A stretch of 64,000 nucleotides of DNA from an uncultured bacterium (GTDB lineage Bacteria > Bipolaricaulota > Bipolaricaulia > RBG-16-55-9 > DRJF01): positions 13,732-77,731 of the forward strand of contig CAJXGD010000002.1 of NCBI GenBank assembly GCA_913053845.1. Reading direction: 5' to 3'. A program made the position numbers and the translations under genes. The notes under the pieces are model-generated. The model did no database searches, was not told the origin of the DNA, and was given only the letters and a program-made list of their open reading frames with translations. Shown one piece after another: positions 3,443 through 48,565 of this stretch (positions are counted from its first letter, which is position 1; every line of letters starts with the position of its first letter).

Positions 3443-4294
3443 ATGTTAAATAATTATACCGGCAAAGTATTCAAAGGTCTTCTGATGTTGGCCGTACCTC
3501 TGGCAGCCCTGCTGGCGCTGAGCGCCGTGGAGCTGGGAGGCGCGCGCAGCGGCCTCTCGGCGGACGCCGCCCCGCAGAGCGCTTGTGCCAGCGGCATCCA
3601 AGTGATAGACAGTTTCGCCCTCCCCCGGCTCGATCCTGGCCAAGGCCAGGTGATAGGCTTGGCCGTGGCCCTGCAGGGTGGCGGGACAATCGAAGCGGTC
3701 ACGCCCACGCCCAAGCGGATCATCCCCGGCCAGGGCAACCTACGGACCTATCTCTATAATAGACTGCGCGGCGTCAGCGCGGTGCAGGTTACCAGTTGCG
3801 CTGCTAGCGCCAGCCTACCTGAGGTGCAAAACGCCTACTGGTTGATCGAGCAGGACGGCGAGCGGGTCGCCCAACAAGTGGCCTTGAGCCAGGTGCGCCG
3901 CGAGGTGCGCCAGGGCAACGTGCTCACCTTGCGTCCCAAGCAGACCACCCGCTACGCGGTGCCCTGCGATCTGAGCGATCCTTCCGGCACCGTGCTGGTC
4001 ATCCCCGGCATGGTGGTCACTACCCAGAGCCAGCTCTGCCTCAGCAGCCGCACCGAGTTGACTCGGCTGCAACGCGAGCTGGAGCGGACCAGCCAGGAGC
4101 TCAACTCGCCCTGGGGTCTGCTCTTCAACCGCGAGGGGCTCACCCGGCGTATCGCCCGCTTGAACGGTGAGGTCACTGCGCTCTATCAGCTCTCACCTTA
4201 CAGCGGCACCGTGGCCGGAGTGCAGCGCGATCGGAGTGACGCCCGGCGCTTCTGGGTAGAGATCAACGTGGAAGAGGTACTTAGCATCCCGTAG
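3443..4294 (+). CDS. hypothetical secreted protein (N-terminal signal/TM segment, C-terminal coiled coil)
   Basis: Hydrophobic N-terminus LLMLAVPLAALLALSAV. GGGGGA ribosome-binding site upstream. Followed by a strong hairpin terminator. Confidence 0.5.
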   Translation: MLNNYTGKVFKGLLMLAVPLAALLALSAVELGGARSGLSADAAPQSACASGIQVIDSFALPRLDPGQGQVIGLAVALQGGGTIEAVTPTPKRIIPGQGNLRTYLYNRLRGVSAVQVTSCAASASLPEVQNAYWLIEQDGERVAQQVALSQVRREVRQGNVLTLRPKQTTRYAVPCDLSDPSGTVLVIPGMVVTTQSQLCLSSRTELTRLQRELERTSQELNSPWGLLFNREGLTRRIARLNGEVTALYQLSPYSGTVAGVQRDRSDARRFWVEINVEEVLSIP

Positions 4295-8263: not shown

Positions 8264-10621
8264 ATGAGCGAAGTTGCCAACGCCAAAACGCTGCGGGACC
8301 TGGAGTTCGAGCGGCTGCGGCAATTGGTCGCCGGCTACGCAGCCTCGCCGCTGGGACGGTCCGCCCTGGTGCGGTTGATGCCCTCGGCAGAACCGACGCG
8401 GGTGCGCGCCGAGCTGCAAGCCGTCCAGGAGATGGGGCAGGCTCTCCAGGAGACGGCGCTGTCGCTGGGTGAGCTGGAAGATCTGGAGCCGGTGCTGCTC
8501 CGCGCCCAAAACCACTTGACGCTGGAGGCCGACGATTTTTTGCAGACGCTGCGGACGCTTCGGGGCGCCCAGCACTGCCGGGTGGAGCTGGCGGAGTTGC
8601 AAGGAGATCATCCGGCCTTGCGCGCCCTGGCCCATCAGATTCAGCCCTTCACCGAGCTGGAGGGTGCCATCGCTCGCACCTTCAACGAAGAAGGCGAGAT
8701 GCTCCCTACCGCCTCGCCGCTGCTGCGCCGGCTCAAAAAGCGCAGGCGGCTGCTCGAAGAGCGTGCCGTAAAGAAGCTGCGCGCCCTGCTCAGCTCGCCC
8801 CAGTACGCCACCCTGATCCAGGAACCGCTGATCACCCGCCGCTCCAACCGGCTGGTCATCCCGATCAAGAGTGCCCTGAAGGGCGGGGTCGAATGTGTGG
8901 TGCATGACAGCTCCGACTCCGGCCAGACCCTCTATGTGGAGCCCACCTCGGTCATCGCCGAGAACAACGAGATTCGCGAGCTGGATTCCCAGATTCGCGA
9001 TGAGCAGTTGCGCATCTTGCAGGAGCTCACCGGGCGGCTCAAGGGCGAGTCGCGCCGGATGCGCGAGACGCTGCGCGCGCTGGCCCGGCTGGATTCGCTC
9101 TACGGGCGCGCCCGCTATGCCCTGGCCCACCAGGCTCATATCCCACAGCTCAACGAGCAAGGTCACCTCAAGCTGGTAAGCGCCCGCCACCCTCTGCTCG
9201 ACCCCGGCCGAGTGGTGCCGATAGATTTCGCGCTGGGAGACGAGCACCAGGGCGCGCTGATCACCGGGCCGAACACCGGGGGCAAGACTGTCTCGCTCAA
9301 GACGGTGGGCTTGCTCACGCTGATGACCCAGGCCGGCATACCCATCCCGGCCGAGCCGGGCAGCGAGATAGCTTGCTTCGAACTGCTCCGCTCCGACATC
9401 GGGGATGAGCAGTCGTTGGAGCAGAATCTGAGCACCTTCTCGGCCCATCTGCGCAATTTGGCCGGCATACTGGCCGAGGTGGGTCCGCGCGCGCTGGTGC
9501 TGATAGACGAGCTGGGCGCGGGGACCGATCCGCAGGAGGGTACAGCACTGGGGATCGCCGTGCTGCGGGCACTGCTGCGCTCCGGGGCCCGGCTGATGGT
9601 GACCACCCACTTCGGCGCGCTGAAGCATTACGCCTACCGGCACGCCGAGCTGAAGACCTATTCGGTGGACTTCGACGTGCGCACGCTCTCGCCGACCTAT
9701 CGGCTGCTCCCGGGAGTGGGTGCATCCAACGCCTTCATCATCGCCGAGCGGCTGGGACTTTCGGCGCAGATCATCGCCGACGCCAGGCATTTCATCGCCG
9801 AGGGGGCAATCCGGGCGGAGGAGATCATCGGCCAACTTCAGGAGGAGCACCGAGCGCTGGCCGAGGAGCGCACCCGGCTGCGTCGCAGTCAAACGCGCAG
9901 CGAGCAGGCCCAGCGCAGCTACGAAGAGCGCCAGCAGCAACTGGAGCGTGAGCAAGGCAAAGCGCTAGGCCAGGAGCTGCGCCGCCTGAGCCAGCAAGTG
10001 AAAAAAGCCCGGCGAGAGCTGGAGACACTGCTGCATCGCGCGCGGCGCGCCAGCGATGCCCAGGAGCTGCAAGCCGAGCTACGCAGGCTGCAAGAGATTT
10101 CCGGAGAGCTGGCTGCCGGTCAGGACCGGCTGGAGCAGGAAGCTGCCGACCGGGCGCTGCCGGCCGGAGAGCTGCGACCGGGCGAGCGGGTCTGGCTGGT
10201 CCCCTTAAACGAAGTGGCCTTGGTGCGGCGAGCTCTGGACAAGGAGCGGGTGCTGGTAGATATTGGCGGGCGGCGCATCCAGGTCAAGCGGAGCGAGCTG
10301 CGCGCTGCTCCGCCCGATGCGCCCCGGCGCAAGCCGAGCGGCTGGTCAGGCAAGTTGATCATAGCCCAGCGGCCGGCCCCGCCGCTGGAGCTGCAACTGC
10401 ACGGACTGTCGGTGAATGAGGCGCTGCCGCTGGTCGAAAGCTATCTCGATCGGCTGCTGCTGGCCGACCGCGGCCAGGGGGTGATCGTGCATGGCAAGGG
10501 CACCGGCACCTTGCGCCGCGCGGTGCGCCATCTGTTGGCTGAGCATCCGTGCGTCAAGAGCTTCTCCGCGGCACCGCTCGATCAAGGGGGCGAGGGGGTC
10601 ACCCTGGTCGAGCTTGACTAG
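8264..10621 (+). CDS. mutS2: endonuclease MutS2 (MutS domain plus C-terminal Smr domain)
   Basis: Walker A ITGPNTGGKTVSLKTVGL. DEL/GAGTDP. C-terminal Smr domain LHGLSVNEALP...VIVHGKGTGTLRRAVRHLL. N-terminal LRDLEFERLRQL matches the MutS2 start. Alternative GTG start at 8240. Confidence 0.9.
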   Translation: MSEVANAKTLRDLEFERLRQLVAGYAASPLGRSALVRLMPSAEPTRVRAELQAVQEMGQALQETALSLGELEDLEPVLLRAQNHLTLEADDFLQTLRTLRGAQHCRVELAELQGDHPALRALAHQIQPFTELEGAIARTFNEEGEMLPTASPLLRRLKKRRRLLEERAVKKLRALLSSPQYATLIQEPLITRRSNRLVIPIKSALKGGVECVVHDSSDSGQTLYVEPTSVIAENNEIRELDSQIRDEQLRILQELTGRLKGESRRMRETLRALARLDSLYGRARYALAHQAHIPQLNEQGHLKLVSARHPLLDPGRVVPIDFALGDEHQGALITGPNTGGKTVSLKTVGLLTLMTQAGIPIPAEPGSEIACFELLRSDIGDEQSLEQNLSTFSAHLRNLAGILAEVGPRALVLIDELGAGTDPQEGTALGIAVLRALLRSGARLMVTTHFGALKHYAYRHAELKTYSVDFDVRTLSPTYRLLPGVGASNAFIIAERLGLSAQIIADARHFIAEGAIRAEEIIGQLQEEHRALAEERTRLRRSQTRSEQAQRSYEERQQQLEREQGKALGQELRRLSQQVKKARRELETLLHRARRASDAQELQAELRRLQEISGELAAGQDRLEQEAADRALPAGELRPGERVWLVPLNEVALVRRALDKERVLVDIGGRRIQVKRSELRAAPPDAPRRKPSGWSGKLIIAQRPAPPLELQLHGLSVNEALPLVESYLDRLLLADRGQGVIVHGKGTGTLRRAVRHLLAEHPCVKSFSAAPLDQGGEGVTLVELD

Positions 10622-10711
10622 GTCGGGCAAGAGAGAAATCTTCCTCCCTTGGTCGGGGGGGTCAACTGGCGTGATCATCCAGGGATTGCCCCTGCGAGAA
10701 ATACGGGTGCG

Positions 10712-10830
10712 TCGGAAAACGCACCGGGGATTAAAATCCCCGGCTACGGTGAGGCACAAAACCCCTAACGGGGTTCTAGGCCGTGAACCCTCGTGAGAGG
10801 GTAGCCGGGGAATACGTTTGCCGGCGGGGA
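10712..10830. repeat. copy 1 of a ~100-nt hairpin-rich intergenic repeat
   Basis: CACCGGGGATTAAAATCCCCGG (hairpin), CACAAAACCCCTAACGGGGTT (hairpin), GAACCCTCGTGAGAGGGT (hairpin), GCCGG...CCGGCGGGG. Closely related copies at 11641 and 12100. Confidence 0.6.
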
Positions 10831-10841
10831 CTTGACTCCGG

Positions 10842-10875
10842 GGTTCAATGGGCTACAATAGCGACAGAACAAACA
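10842..10875 (+). promoter_or_regulatory. near-consensus sigma70 promoter upstream of the toxin-antitoxin operon
   Basis: TTGACT, 16-nt spacer, TACAAT. About 135-nt leader, then an AAGGAG ribosome-binding site before the ATG at 11013. Confidence 0.5.
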
Positions 10876-11012
10876 TCCAAGGGCAGTTGGATTCGCGTCG
10901 AAGGTTCCACGGTAGTTTTGTGTTGTTCCCTGGTAGCCGCGCTCTGGGCAGTCGCAGGCAACCCTTACCTTGAGGCAGGGGGGAGTTCCCCTAAGGTGGA
11001 AGGAGAAACAAG

Positions 11013-11261
11013 ATGCCGTCTTCAACCTTGCAGGAGCTGGAATGGGCCATTCAAGCATTACCTTGGTCAGAGCAACTGAGGCTGCTGGAATACCTGGCCG
11101 GCCAGGTACGCAAAAAGGCCGAAGCAGCCCAACGCTGGGCCGGAGGGGAGCTAGAAGCGCAATTGACAGCAATGGCCCAGGATCCTGCCATCCAACGTGA
11201 AGTAAAGGCCATCGCTCAGGAGTTCGCCCCCACCGAAGCCGACGGGCTCGATCTCCAATGA
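11013..11261 (+). CDS. putative type II antitoxin (partner of the MazF/PemK toxin)
   Basis: 82-aa helical acidic protein. The stop overlaps the toxin start (ATGA). Good ribosome-binding site. Confidence 0.5.
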   Translation: MPSSTLQELEWAIQALPWSEQLRLLEYLAGQVRKKAEAAQRWAGGELEAQLTAMAQDPAIQREVKAIAQEFAPTEADGLDLQ

Positions 11262-11653
11262 GCGTCCGGCGGGGAGAGATCTACTTCGTCAATCTGAATC
11301 CGGTGCGTGGGAGAGAGCAGGCCGGACAGCGGCCTGTGTTGGTGCTCTCCGTGGACACCATCAATAGCTTGCCGCTGGTGGTGACCGTGGTAGTCGGAAC
11401 CAAGGGGAGCAACGTACCCCGTGATTATCCGGCCAATGTTCGGGTATCAGCCCAGGAGAGCGGTTTGCCGATGGAGACTGTGTTTCTCTGTTTTCAGTTG
11501 CGATCGTTGGACCCTGAGCGCTTCTCCGATCAGCCTGCGGGTAGTCTGAGCCGGCCAAGCTACATGAGGTTGAAGCGGCAGTCCGTTACTGTCTGGGATT
11601 GTAACCTTAGCAGCACGAGGGCGGAATTGTTCCTAGCGACCACCGGGGATTAA
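11258..11653 (+). CDS. MazF/PemK family endoribonuclease toxin
   Basis: RGEIYFVNLNPVRGREQAGQRPVLVLS...LPLVVTVVVGTKG...RDYPANV...TVFLCFQLRSLDPERF is the canonical PemK/MazF pattern. Confidence 0.8.
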   Translation: MSVRRGEIYFVNLNPVRGREQAGQRPVLVLSVDTINSLPLVVTVVVGTKGSNVPRDYPANVRVSAQESGLPMETVFLCFQLRSLDPERFSDQPAGSLSRPSYMRLKRQSVTVWDCNLSSTRAELFLATTGD

Positions 11654-11765
11654 AACCCCCGGCTTGCGGTGAAGCACAAAACCACTACGGGGTTGTAGGT
11701 CGTGAACCCTTGTGAGAGGGTTTCCCTGATGTCAGGTAGCCGGGAAATTCATTTCCCGGCGGGGC
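11641..11765. repeat. copy 2 of the hairpin-rich repeat. It abuts the stop of the minus-strand gene and may also act as its terminator.
   Basis: CACCGGGGATTAAAACCCCCGG ... CACAAAACCACTACGGGGTT ... GAACCCTTGTGAGAGGGT ... CCGGGAAATTCATTTCCCGG (perfect 8-bp hairpin) GCGGGG. Confidence 0.6.
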
Positions 11766-12038
11766 TCAGGGCTCCTCCGGACCGCCATAGATGACATAGA
11801 CAGGCGTGCCGGCTAATATCAAATCAACCACTCGCTTGTCCATGGCTTTAGCTATCCGGCGAATCCGCTCCTCATCCGGCCCGTAGAGTTCTAGGAAGAC
11901 TCCTTCGTCATATCGAGTCACAATGCGATAGCCTATCTCAGGATGCTTGCCCTGCATCCGGCGCGCCATCTCTTTGGCTTTAGCGCGAGCGCCTTCGTAA
12001 TCTACCTCGTACTCAAAGACGGTTTCACTCTGGGCCAT
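11766..12038 (-). CDS. hypothetical protein (90 aa)
   Basis: Open frame with a GGAGAGAGG ribosome-binding site. No recognisable family. Flanked on both sides by repeat copies. Confidence 0.45.
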   Translation of the reverse strand: MAQSETVFEYEVDYEGARAKAKEMARRMQGKHPEIGYRIVTRYDEGVFLELYGPDEERIRRIAKAMDKRVVDLILAGTPVYVIYGGPEEP

Positions 12039-12099
12039 CGTGCAACACCTCTCTCCAGGCTACTTGCCAACGGGTAGGGACATAGCATGTTGGAGTTTA

Positions 12100-12200
12100 A
12101 CACCGGGGATTAGAACCCCCGGCTTGCGCTGAGGCACAAAACCCCTAACGGGGTTCCAGGCCCTGAACCCTCCTGAGAGGCTTTCCCGGTGGCCCGGTAT
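12100..12200. repeat. copy 3 of the hairpin-rich repeat
   Basis: CACCGGGGATTAGAACCCCCGG ... CACAAAACCCCTAACGGGGTT ... GAACCCTCCTGAGAGG ... CCCGGTGGCCCGG. Confidence 0.6.
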
Positions 12201-12213
12201 GACCGTTGCAGCC

Positions 12214-12657
12214 TCAAAAGACCTCGTCTGGGGCAACGCTCAAACCGGTCAGGAGCGGCGAGCGCAACGTCTGGCTTTTCTCATAACGCCCGGCCGGTTG
12301 GTAGCCCTGTGGCCCCAGCGCGAGCACTTCGATGGACTTGGAGTCGGGATCAACCAGCCAGTATTCCCGAACCCTGGAGCGGGCGTAGAGGGTGCGCTTG
12401 AAGCTGCGGTCCCGCCCGGCGGTGGCCGGGGAGAGGATCACGTCTAGTGGAGCATCATACACTTTACCTAAGTGATGATCACGGATATACCGGACAAGTG
12501 CAAAGTAAATCTTGCCTGAGATCTCTTGGTGATAGGGAATGGGCACAGGGGCCATTACGATCTCGCCTCCCAACAGCTCGTAGCGCTTGATCTCCGATTC
12601 GGGCAGGTTCCGATAATCTTCCAGCATGAACTTGAGCTTAACTTGAGTCTGGGCCAT
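12214..12657 (-). CDS. Uma2 family endonuclease (DUF820, PD-(D/E)xK-like)
   Basis: YELLGGEIVMAPVPIPYHQEISGKIYFALVRYIRDHHLGKVYDAPLDVIL...YVPDL-type core. Typical Uma2 length of 147 aa. Confidence 0.8.
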   Translation of the reverse strand: MAQTQVKLKFMLEDYRNLPESEIKRYELLGGEIVMAPVPIPYHQEISGKIYFALVRYIRDHHLGKVYDAPLDVILSPATAGRDRSFKRTLYARSRVREYWLVDPDSKSIEVLALGPQGYQPAGRYEKSQTLRSPLLTGLSVAPDEVF

Positions 12658-26998: not shown

Positions 26999-27130
26999 GA
27001 CAACTCCTTCCTATTTTTTTGCTTCCCTATTGCTCTCAACCATATTCGCTTGTTGCACGCCCACATCAGCCTGGTGCATCGCTTGATGATCACCTCCTCT
27101 TGGGGCTCTATTTGCGCCATTGTACAGCCT

Positions 27131-27146
27131 TAGATTGTCGACAGTA
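27131..27146. promoter_or_regulatory. candidate GntR-type operator upstream of the substrate-binding-protein gene
   Basis: The 15-mer CTTAGATTGTCGACA (core palindrome TGTCGACA) recurs exactly at 37013-37028 upstream of the gntR start. Next to it is a GTATAT-T-ATATAC palindrome. Confidence 0.4.
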
Positions 27147-27284
27147 TATTATATACGCAATGGGTCTCAATGTCAAGTGCCAGAAATTCCTGGCACCTAC
27201 CAAGCCTACAGACGAAAACCTCTTGAGCCTCTGATGAAAGCAAAGCACGGTACCCTCACTTGGCATGATACGTCAACCCGAACG

Positions 27285-37012: not shown

Positions 37013-37028
37013 CCTTAGATTGTCGACA
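37013..37028. promoter_or_regulatory. candidate autoregulatory GntR operator
   Basis: CTTAGATTGTCGACA lies 16-31 nt upstream of the gntR start and is identical to the motif at 27131. Confidence 0.4.
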
Positions 37029-37271
37029 ACATGCAGTATACCAAAACGTCCTCCCAATGTCAAGGGCGAGAGTTGGTGCGCCAAGAGATCAGCTACAGTC
37101 GCAGACAGCTCCCTGGGGAACTGTGGCATCGGGAGTTGGTCGCGGCTTATTAGCCTGGGTCTGCTCTCTGCTCCTCGTCAAGCTCCTTGCCCGCTAGAAG
37201 CCGCGCTTACCGCTGTGATAGGGGCCATACGCCCCTACAGTCGGAGGCGACATGAGGAATAAGATTTAGCA

Positions 37272-46885: not shown

Positions 46886-47911
46886 TCAGGCAAGACGAAC
46901 CTGGGCAGCGGGAGCGCTGGAGGCGGCCCGCAGGGCGCGCGCTGCCTCCTCCGGGGGGACCGGATTAACGTAGAGACCGCTGCTCCATTCCAGGCCGGCC
47001 AGCTTGGTCAGACGGGGCAGCAGCTCCAGGTGCCAATGATAGCTTGCCTCAAGAGCCTGTGGCAGCTCGCCAGGCTCAGCGGGGAGAGGTGCCGTGTGCA
47101 AATAAAAATTATAGGCCCAGCGCCCGGCCCCTAAGAATCCTCGCAATCGGGCCAGGGTGCATTGCAATATTCGGGCAAAGGAGCTGATCTCTGTGCTAGA
47201 GAGCTGGCAGAAATCGTGCCGGTGGACCAGAGGCAGAATCCAGCATTCATAAGGGAGCCGCGCAGCATACGGGGACCAAACCAAAAAATGTTCATCTGAT
47301 TCGATGACGCGCTCCCCTGAGCCGAGCTCCCGCTCGATAGTCTGGCAATAGAGACAGCGACCGCCTTCGGCATAGGACCGTTGAGCGATCTCTGTCTCAG
47401 CTTCGATCAGCGGGGGCAACCAAGGCAGGCCGATCAGTTGGGCGTGCGCATGGGCTCGTGAGGCTCCCGCGGCCCGGCCCTGGTTCTTGAAGAGTGACAG
47501 GTAGCGCAGGGTCTTGTGCTGTGCCAAGGCCCTCATCCGTTGCTGATAGGTAAAGATCACTTGCTCCGCCTGCTGCGGCGGCAGATCGGGGAGGTCGAAC
47601 CGGTGCTGAGGCGTCTCGATGATCAGCTCGTGAGGTTCGACTATGGGGTATTTGTTGGGGATGACCCGTATTTGCCAGCCGGGACTGTCCGGCGCTCCCG
47701 CCCGCAGGGCCCATAATTCCGCCGGGGTCTCCGCTTCGTGACCTGGGCAGAAGGGGCAGGCAGCCTCATCCTGCGGCGTGGCTACCTGCGGCCAATCTGA
47801 GGGTCTTTGCGCCCTTCCGGCCACGAACAGGACGCGACGCCCGCTGAAGATGTCGGTTTTTACTTCGGTCATGCTCCTCCTTGGGGGGTAAGGCCTGTCT
47901 TGGGCAGCCAC
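46886..47911 (-). CDS. galactose-1-phosphate uridylyltransferase family protein (GalT-like, HIT superfamily)
   Basis: CPFCPGHE zinc motif and the histidine active-site region HAHAQL of GalT-type nucleotidyl transferases. Confidence 0.75.
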   Translation of the reverse strand: MAAQDRPYPPRRSMTEVKTDIFSGRRVLFVAGRAQRPSDWPQVATPQDEAACPFCPGHEAETPAELWALRAGAPDSPGWQIRVIPNKYPIVEPHELIIETPQHRFDLPDLPPQQAEQVIFTYQQRMRALAQHKTLRYLSLFKNQGRAAGASRAHAHAQLIGLPWLPPLIEAETEIAQRSYAEGGRCLYCQTIERELGSGERVIESDEHFLVWSPYAARLPYECWILPLVHRHDFCQLSSTEISSFARILQCTLARLRGFLGAGRWAYNFYLHTAPLPAEPGELPQALEASYHWHLELLPRLTKLAGLEWSSGLYVNPVPPEEAARALRAASSAPAAQVRLA

Positions 47912-47923
47912 AGAGGGCTGCCC

Positions 47924-48565
47924 CTACTTGACTCGCAACTCGACGCTGCCGAAGTCAGCCGGGATCACCAGATCGGCCAGCTCTAGGTGCCGGGAGATAA
48001 TCCGATGTTCTCGCTCCAGGACCTCTTGGAGGAAGGAATCAAAGCGATCCCGGGCGCGACGCCGGCGGTCGGCCTGGGTCTGGCGATAGTCACGGGCGAT
48101 GAAGATGTGAAAGTCGGCAAATTGCAGCCGGGTAGTATAGGTCCCCTCAGCGATGAGCACCTGCCAACTGTGGGTGTCCAGCTCCTCGGTGGTGATCCGG
48201 TCTTCGTCGTAGATCACCAGCGGCTTGAATATCGGGTTCTCATCGCGCTTGAAGGAGCGCAGATTGGCATCCAGAAAATCCAGTTTGACCTCGTAGGTGC
48301 CGACCTGCTCCAGATTTCTACGACGCATCTCATGATTGGTCTGGGGGGGAAAGACGAAATAATCGTCCTGTTGCACTATGCCCGTCTGCGCTCCCGCTGC
48401 GAAGAGCAATCGGGCGAGCTCGGCGGCCAGCTCGGACTTGCCCGAGCCGGATTCGCCTCCTACGGTGATGACGTATTTGTCCTGAAGACGGCTGGTCAAC
48501 AGCCGGCAGATCTCAGCGGCGCGCGCGGTATGATAAGGCTCGATCAACAGCTTATCCCCGATCAT
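47924..48565 (-). CDS. P-loop kinase of the uridine kinase/phosphoribulokinase/glycerate-3-kinase family
   Basis: VITVGGESGSGKSELAAELARLL Walker A motif. ~210 aa. Substrate cannot be assigned from sequence. Confidence 0.6.
   Translation of the reverse strand: MIGDKLLIEPYHTARAAEICRLLTSRLQDKYVITVGGESGSGKSELAAELARLLFAAGAQTGIVQQDDYFVFPPQTNHEMRRRNLEQVGTYEVKLDFLDANLRSFKRDENPIFKPLVIYDEDRITTEELDTHSWQVLIAEGTYTTRLQFADFHIFIARDYRQTQADRRRRARDRFDSFLQEVLEREHRIISRHLELADLVIPADFGSVELRVK

Follow-up and report, generated by a model that had tools for sequence, protein, structure and literature searches.

Three hairpin repeats of a GTAG-tagged family, probably of the REP/REPIN kind, in a toxin-antitoxin islet of an uncultured bacterium

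The repeat in the window and its family

The window, a 64-kb stretch of contig CAJXGD010000002.1 from an uncultured bacterium, contains three copies (A, B and C) of a multi-hairpin repeat in an islet of toxin-antitoxin and Uma2 genes next to mutS2. All three copies are intergenic: copy A lies between mutS2 and mazE, copy B between mazF and a convergent 90-aa gene, and copy C between the 90-aa gene and a Uma2 gene. The repeat unit is present in three of the four intergenic gaps of the islet and in none of the 15 other window gaps that are 60 nt or longer. Repeat finding and a covariance model recovered the copies in one orientation on the plus strand, at 10722-10829 (A), 11641-11764 (B) and 12101 to about 12199 (C). 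An earlier description made from the letters of the window (the sequence-only reading) had proposed three copies; all exist, B and C about where it placed them, and its start for A (10712) is 10 nt early. A 20-nt core (CCGGGGATTARAAYCCCCGG) occurs three times in the 64 kb, against 0.02 occurrences expected by chance, and no part of the repeat, core included, was found in the rest of the window. The sequences flanking the three copies are mutually unrelated; the copies are therefore not duplications of flanking DNA, and the sequence-only reading had likewise argued against simple duplication.

Relatives of the repeat were found by scanning metagenome contigs with its central segment, the true relatives lying on VAOU01 and ORDP01 contigs, and a covariance model (R1) built from this family was used to locate further copies. 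About 30 were located on contigs of these two metagenomes, so that the additional copies sought do exist, though none elsewhere in the 64 kb. The consensus unit is 121 nt long and has sharp ends (CACCGGGGATTAAAATCCCCGGCTACGGTGAGGCACAAAACCCCTAACGGGGTTCCAGGTCGTGAACCCTCGTGAGAGGGTTTCCCTGACGTCAGGTAGCCGGGAAATTCATTTCCCGGYG). Its 26-nt ends are inverted copies of one another (21 of 26 positions identical), and each folds into a hairpin of its own: from the inside outward, an end module has GTAG, then a stem of 8 bp with a 4-nt loop (GTAG+CCGGGGATTTTAATCCCCGG and GTAG+CCGGGAAATTCATTTCCCGG). A conserved 70-nt spacer between the end modules holds three inner hairpins, which gives five hairpins per full unit. 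GTAG is also the commonest 4-mer preceding perfect hairpins in the family loci (33 of 162). The anatomy of the window copies is as follows.

Copy A, 10722-10829, plus strand: 107.8 bits, E-value 3.6e-26; an internal deletion takes out the 16-nt hairpin 4
Copy A, 10724-10743: left module hairpin, followed by CTAC at 10744-10747
Copy A, 10758-10775: hairpin 2
Copy A, 10786-10802: hairpin 3
Copy A, 10801-10804: GTAG
Copy A, 10805-10824: right module hairpin, with one G/G mismatch
Copy B, 11641-11764, plus strand: 124.5 bits, E-value 2e-30; the sole full-length unit in the window (121 model positions)
Copy B, 11643-11662: left module hairpin, its tag degenerated to CTTGC at 11663-11667 (GCAAG when read inverted)
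Copy B, 11678-11694: hairpin 2
Copy B, 11705-11722: hairpin 3
Copy B, 11725-11736: hairpin 4
Copy B, 11736-11739: GTAG
Copy B, 11740-11759: right module hairpin
Copy C, 12101-12199, plus strand: 79.8 bits; truncated at its 3' end, with loss of the right GTAG module
Copy C, 12103-12122: left module hairpin, followed by CTTGC
Copy C, 12138-12155: hairpin 2
Copy C, 12166-12183: hairpin 3, with one pair broken

Folding of copies A and B is much more stable than that of shuffled controls, for RNA as for DNA and on either strand (z about -3 to -5), and copy C folds better than its controls on the minus strand only. The hairpins described earlier are real, but the copies are not equivalent, A being without the 16-nt hairpin and C without the right module. 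Copy A carries the tag on both sides (CTAC left, GTAG right) and copy B has GTAG on the right only; the family consensus has both. Copies B and C have two derived characters in common, a loop-closing T changed to C and a change from TA to TTG in the tag, and are therefore each other's closest relatives.

The sequence-only reading had also reported compensatory substitutions among the three copies and had argued from them for selection on secondary structure. When A, B and C are compared across helices 1-4, there is no pair-preserving change, each difference being one-sided (G-C to G-T), in a loop, or pair-breaking, and three apparent two-sided changes in helix 5 are an artefact of forcing the truncated copy C onto the model. 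Such changes being absent, the argument from them fails. Within the 121-nt subfamily a two-sided change occurs at one stem pair only.

The copies of each contig are uniform in orientation, independent of gene direction, with a chance probability of about 3e-5 for some 15 independent choices. Head-to-tail arrays occur and have a conserved 19-nt linker (GGGCATCTATCTCCACACC), the pattern of which across L106, L101, L085 and L089 (L numbers are our labels for loci and contigs) is G[GA]G[CG]ATC[CT]ATCTCCA[CA][GA][AC]C. A junction hairpin can form across the linker, where a unit's end is able to pair with the start of the following unit (CCCGGTGGG / CCCACCGGG). Several units are truncated at differing points, or are chimeric, their right end having been swapped for another GTAG palindrome. 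No consistent direct repeat indicative of target-site duplication was present at the borders of 18 units tested, all but one full length, and no consistent target tetranucleotide was seen at unit borders (TTAA precedes six of 17 aligned copies, and GAC four).

Other palindromes were observed in the same loci. A second family, GTAGGGGC...GCCCCTAC, co-occurs with 121-nt units in L085, L098, L101 and L103, and also in L016, L023, L045 and L071; it takes the place of the right-hand module in L101 (215-333 in repeat orientation; locus 3535-3653) and in L087 (232-349). A possible relative of it, GTAGGGGCAGCCCTCTGTGGCTGCCC, is found in the window at 47902-47927 on the minus strand, between divergent genes. 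A further element that has TAGTCCTAAACGGATAAGG as its end sequence (L089 2734-2898 and L087 1-110) splits the first hairpin of a unit, a position that recalls insertion sequences targeting the hairpins of repetitive extragenic palindromes (REPs). A hairpin of the exact sequence CCGGGGATTAAAATCCCCGG, with CTA directly after it, is also present in metagenome-assembled genomes of Chloroflexota (Thermomicrobiales, Anaerolineae), Thermoanaerobaculia, Planctomycetota, Nitrospirales and others (L001-L072). There it is usually the left end of a multi-hairpin unit of 100-130 nt, whose right end combines AGCC with a covarying, TTCA-looped hairpin, and it is widely common across these genomes while the other hairpins vary.

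A transposase gene flanked by the repeats

Contig L106, 1 kb in length, contains a single gene (343-756) between two tandem pairs of the unit. The product is a 137-aa Y1/HUH transposase (Pfam Y1_Tnp, E-value 7.5e-22, 78.2 bits against a cut-off of 23) that scores as an IS200 equivalog (NCBIfam transpos_IS200, 71 bits against a cut-off of 55). The TnpA proteins of ISDra2 and IS608 are the nearest solved structures, and the HUH motif (DHIHLLV) and catalytic tyrosine (YVNRQ) align to ISDra2 TnpA. This arrangement, termed a REPtron, was found in three independent metagenomes (L106, L123/L124 and L125/L126; TnpA identity 100%, 91% and 75%), and the transposases of L123/L124 and L125/L126 are likewise flanked by units of the 121-nt family in the same relative orientation as in L106. 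Each transposase cluster was seen on one to four contigs. In addition, two of the 72 genome loci with the 20-nt hairpin, from Desulfobacteraceae and Nitrospirales, have a homologous transposase gene within about 160 nt.

Four more distant homologues of the transposase (54-61% identity), from four genomes, are all sited between a DUF348/G5 gene and a Wzy_C gene, and their divergence is on a par with that of their neighbors (TnpA 73-78%, G5 80-83%, Wzy 73-74%). Tandem units of about 210 nt, built on the plan of the 121-nt unit but with other stems (e.g., AGCGCGGGACTGAAGTCCCGCGCTAC ... GTAGCGTGGGATTTCAATCCCACGC), lie to either side of each. The homologues examined keep this one syntenic site, and the several contexts or multiple copies that would mark an autonomous insertion sequence were not observed among them. 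Low copy number and vertical inheritance of the transposase thus hold for the 54-61% relatives.

Comparison of the GTAG module across families revealed two-sided changes at seven of eight stem pairs, a score that none of 500 shuffles reached, and 95.5% of cells paired, a percentage that is partly circular because the modules were picked with a hairpin finder. The test is informative in showing that geometry and tag stay constant while the stems change, rather than through the paired percentage. The covariance approach suggested by the sequence-only reading therefore lends support across related families of other genomes, and solely there; among the three window copies it lends none.

Probable affinity with REP elements and alternative explanations

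A GTAG adjoining a palindrome is the defining feature of the REP superfamily (PMC3733652), and REP, REPIN and bacterial interspersed mosaic elements (BIMEs), together with REPtrons, have been described in detail (PMC3116915, Bertels & Rainey 2011; PMC3733652, Di Nocera 2013; PMC5581495, Bertels 2017; PMC6006769). The repeat described here resembles them in its GTAG tag beside an imperfect palindrome of about 20 nt and in its inverted pair of palindromes per unit with the tags facing inward, which is the 'TT dimer' of PMC3733652. It further resembles them in the extragenic location of the units between co-directional or convergent genes, in their clusters, tandem arrays and conserved linkers, in the Y1/HUH transposase gene that is flanked by its own repeats and is syntenic and low-copy in relatives, and in repeat stems that co-vary with the transposase lineage. 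On the basis of these features we conclude that the three repeats are probably non-autonomous, dispersed members of a REP/REPIN (BIME-like) family carried by a Candidatus Fraserbacteria genome, with a cognate transposase of the IS200 clade. Nunvar in 2010 and Ton-Hoang in 2012 reportedly described REP elements with RAYT (TnpA-REP) transposases. The family consists of mobile or ex-mobile DNA hairpin elements of a known class, and is not a new kind of RNA or recombination system. The sequence-only reading had offered a mobile repeat resembling a miniature inverted-repeat transposable element (MITE) as one explanation; a repeat of mobile type it is, of the REP/REPIN kind with GTAG inverted palindromes and a Y1/HUH transposase, but it has no classical terminal inverted repeats with target-site duplications.

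We propose that the GTAG modules would fold as hairpins in single-stranded DNA, where a cognate small IS200-type Y1 (HUH) transposase, itself flanked by arrays of the unit, would recognize the hairpins and cut or join, by analogy with IS200/IS605 TnpA and Escherichia coli TnpA-REP. We infer that this transposase mobilizes the units through single-stranded DNA and is encoded in the window's own genome. Units would spread in this way into intergenic DNA strand-specifically and without target-site duplications, and a single-stranded mechanism would account for both their strand-consistent orientation and the lack of such duplications. Recombination or imprecise events at the units may then truncate units and nearby genes, which would explain why copies accumulate at, and mark breakpoints in, dispensable toxin-antitoxin and Uma2 DNA.

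Several observations weigh against the REP/REPIN assignment. No transposase gene is present in the 64-kb window, and the REPtron contigs are metagenome fragments of 0.7-1 kb that are not assignable to the window's genome. Although it passes the IS200 model, the L106 transposase misses the NCBIfam model for RAYT (NF047646, REP_Tyr_transpos; 24.5 bits, cut-off 80), and its PDB matches at E<=1 do not include E. coli TnpA-REP. Copies B and C have a degenerate left GTAG tag, and, for a classical REP family, just three copies in 64 kb, all within one toxin-antitoxin islet of 1.5 kb, are a sparse and clustered set. The partial circularity of the paired percentage in the covariation test belongs with these points. 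Further differences from described REPs and REPINs are the conserved 70-nt spacer with three further hairpins between the palindromes and the host, which belongs to the candidate phylum Candidatus Fraseribacteriota. By description only, the repeats of Thermomicrobium roseum (Chloroflexota) named GTAG-23 are comparable, being GTAG-tagged palindromes in a deep-branching, non-proteobacterial, GC-rich genome that lie in blocks at few loci and are not evenly spread (PMC3733652).

The main alternative, which we consider unlikely, is an ordinary mobile IS200 with miniature derivatives: the units would be ends or fused ends of an insertion sequence (IS) of IS200/IS605 type, that is, deletion derivatives of an active IS, like MITEs or palindrome-associated transposable elements (PATEs), and not REPINs of a domesticated single-copy transposase. 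The transposase does belong to the same sequence family as those of IS200, IS608 and ISDra2, with the HUH motif and catalytic tyrosine, and both its IS200 equivalog score and its closest structures (ISDra2 and IS608 TnpA) fit this alternative. The repeat-tnpA-repeat segment of L106, about 690 nt, has the size of IS200, and its flanking units are directly oriented, like the left and right end hairpins of the IS200/IS605 family. The units also share with that family end hairpins that would be recognized as single-stranded DNA, strand-specific, co-oriented behavior and the absence of target-site duplications. However, the gene is flanked by identical whole 121-nt units, often in tandem pairs, and not by distinct left and right ends, and the unit borders show no conserved target sequence of 4-5 nt. 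The tnpA gene is also static in relatives, its homologues holding one syntenic site across genomes whose neighboring proteins have diverged by 17-27%, there are few contigs per transposase cluster, and the inverted GTAG-tagged modules in each unit are a REP signature.

Somewhat less probable again is a reading in which any two co-oriented units act like IS200-type left and right ends and the Y1 transposase excises and pastes the toxin-antitoxin, Uma2 or HEPN genes between them in the form of single-stranded cassettes. It would explain the co-oriented, one-gene spacing, the toxin-antitoxin-rich content and the differing neighbors of homologous Uma2 and HEPN/90-aa genes across related genomes, and, if true, would amount to integron-like gene shuffling driven by an HUH enzyme in place of a tyrosine recombinase. 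A search for the expected cassettes yielded no gene with identical junctions in two contexts, the Uma2 coding region alone being common.

That the units are a structured RNA family (small RNAs, attenuators or mRNA-stabilizing 3' elements) under selection for RNA fold, as the sequence-only reading had also suggested, is very unlikely. They fold stably on both strands, the stem covariation across families is equally compatible with RNA, and, lying downstream of mutS2, mazF, the 90-aa gene and Uma2, the units would fall in 3' untranslated regions. Yet no Rfam 15 match was obtained, either for the window at the gathering score or for 10600-12300 at E<=10, and no tRNA or tmRNA is present in the window. 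Orientation follows the contig and not the genes, copy A being sense to its neighbors, copy C antisense and copy B between convergent genes. The units also occur in tandem arrays and as truncated copies, are inserted into genes and are linked with a transposase, all of which speaks for DNA. REPs of other bacteria are known to stabilize mRNA (PMC3733652). An RNA role of that sort is possible for these units as a secondary effect, and would leave their origin unexplained.

Least probable of these is that the units are attC-like sites of an integron-type cassette array, i.e., a cluster of attC sites lacking an integrase (CALIN), with the toxin-antitoxin, Uma2 and 90-aa genes as cassettes moved by a tyrosine recombinase. 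As in such arrays, co-oriented, structured repeats of about 100 nt, which would act as folded single-stranded DNA, separate small genes: the units stand one small gene or operon (0.5-1 kb) apart in the window, L089 and L101, and the content between them is rich in toxin-antitoxin genes, as in chromosomal integrons. An N-terminal fragment resembling an integron integrase abuts a unit in L079, and GTTTAAC, which fits the R'' consensus, occurs in some left flanks. That motif is confined to those flanks, which vary between copies, and the unit ends are CACCGGGG... and ...CCCGGYG; no GTTRRRY box is found at the right end, no RYYYAAC inside the unit, and thus no R'/R'' boxes. A full unit folds into five separate hairpins in a row instead of the single long, imperfect hairpin with extrahelical bases of an attC site, arrays with 19-nt linkers run head to tail with no gene in between, and genes between units point in either direction. 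No IntI homologue is present in the 64 kb or in the other family loci, the L079 fragment is itself cut short by the unit, and the one gene with units consistently at its sides encodes a Y1/HUH transposase. Recombination sites marking an addiction islet, another proposal of the sequence-only reading, are thus supported as far as clustering in toxin-antitoxin-rich DNA and gene breakpoints go, but the sites are not attC-like and no integrase lies in the window. Classical MITEs, derived from DDE elements, were rejected since the units lack target-site duplications.

As a REP/REPIN family, the repeats would extend the partnership of such elements with a Y1 transposase to the candidate phylum Candidatus Fraseribacteriota and related uncultured lineages; our literature search found no report of REPs for this phylum, and no relevant published work on the hairpin sequence or the assembly accessions. 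The transposase partner is still of IS200 type by sequence, which would be useful for tracing the domestication of IS200 transposases. Units at the breakpoints of toxin-antitoxin operons may help to explain the scrambling of such islets and the origin of orphan toxin and antitoxin genes. The units also break metagenome assemblies, the REPtron contigs being about 1 kb long, and annotators can mistake them for RNA genes or cassette sites.

Islet genes, breakpoints and neighboring DNA

Four genes of the islet lie beside or between the three copies.

82-aa gene, 11013-11261, plus strand: upstream of and overlapping mazF; presumed antitoxin; no Pfam or NCBIfam match
MazF/PemK toxin gene, 11258-11653, plus strand: the frame (131 aa) enters copy B and has its stop inside the repeat
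90-aa gene, 11766-12038, minus strand: no Pfam match; few homologues (6 clusters)
Uma2 (DUF820) gene, 12214-12657, minus strand: 147 aa; internal deletion of 111 nt (37 aa) relative to 184-aa homologues

A canonical MazF C-terminus (LHEVEAAVRYCLGL*) is encoded in another frame, ending at 11604. The reading frames suggest a 1-nt frameshift in mazF near 11550. The 131-aa product is also called in two of three near-identical strains (L074 and L075), and the frameshift is therefore probably not an assembly error of one sample. A homologue of the 90-aa protein (86% identical) in a related organism (L127 62-713) is a downstream partner that overlaps the end of a HEPN gene, and the 90-aa gene is probably the antitoxin-like half of a toxin-antitoxin pair with HEPN. 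No HEPN gene occurs in the window; the truncated copy C occupies that side of the 90-aa gene. The 184-aa Uma2 homologues adjoin the same repeat family in L089 and L097. The stretch deleted from the window gene (...DEDVVQPDILF...PDLVIEIL...) looks like the nuclease core, and the window copy is for that reason probably inactive. A fragment of the Uma2 5' end is also present in L101 (2892-2982).

The great majority of genes beside or between units on the family contigs are of toxin-antitoxin type or comparable small accessory genes; they include MazF, two PIN, AbrB/MazE-type, HEPN, HepT with its nucleotidyltransferase, DUF433, TumE and Uma2. Some are interrupted at a unit: the HEPN gene of L101 breaks off there, short of its last 24 or so codons, and in L079 (10697-10984, minus strand) an integron-integrase-like protein is cut after about 80 residues exactly at a unit (TIGR02249, first 66 profile positions). 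We read this pattern as insertion into, and rearrangement of, dispensable DNA. On the far side of the L079 unit are two genes predicted to resemble a nucleotidyltransferase-based defense pair.

Comparison of the locus among related strains, proposed by the sequence-only reading, could be made in part. The three contigs that share the islet locus are from strains 99.8-99.96% identical and hence uninformative on insertion. The nearest other relatives (L120-L122), whose MutS2 proteins are the closest homologues (65-67%), lack synteny downstream of mutS2 and have no units there, which leaves no empty site by which the islet could be shown to be an insertion. Among named organisms, the MutS2 homologues nearest in sequence, about 50-53% identical, are from Fraserbacteria and Bipolaricaulota/Acetothermia, and NCBI gives a Candidatus Fraserbacteria metagenome-assembled genome as the source of the 90-aa protein.

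A good sigma-70-like promoter match (TTGACT, 16 nt, TACAAT) was observed at 10832-10859 on the plus strand, 3 nt past copy A and about 150 nt 5' of the mazE-like gene. The G+C content falls from 63-65% in the first 16 kb of the window to 54-55% between 16 and 40 kb, where nearly all genes are on the minus strand. GC skew changes sign across the window and gives no direction of replication. The sequence CCTTAGATTGTCGACA ... CAATGTCAAG is common to two intergenic regions, at 27128-27156 and 37013-37041, and may be an operator or promoter.

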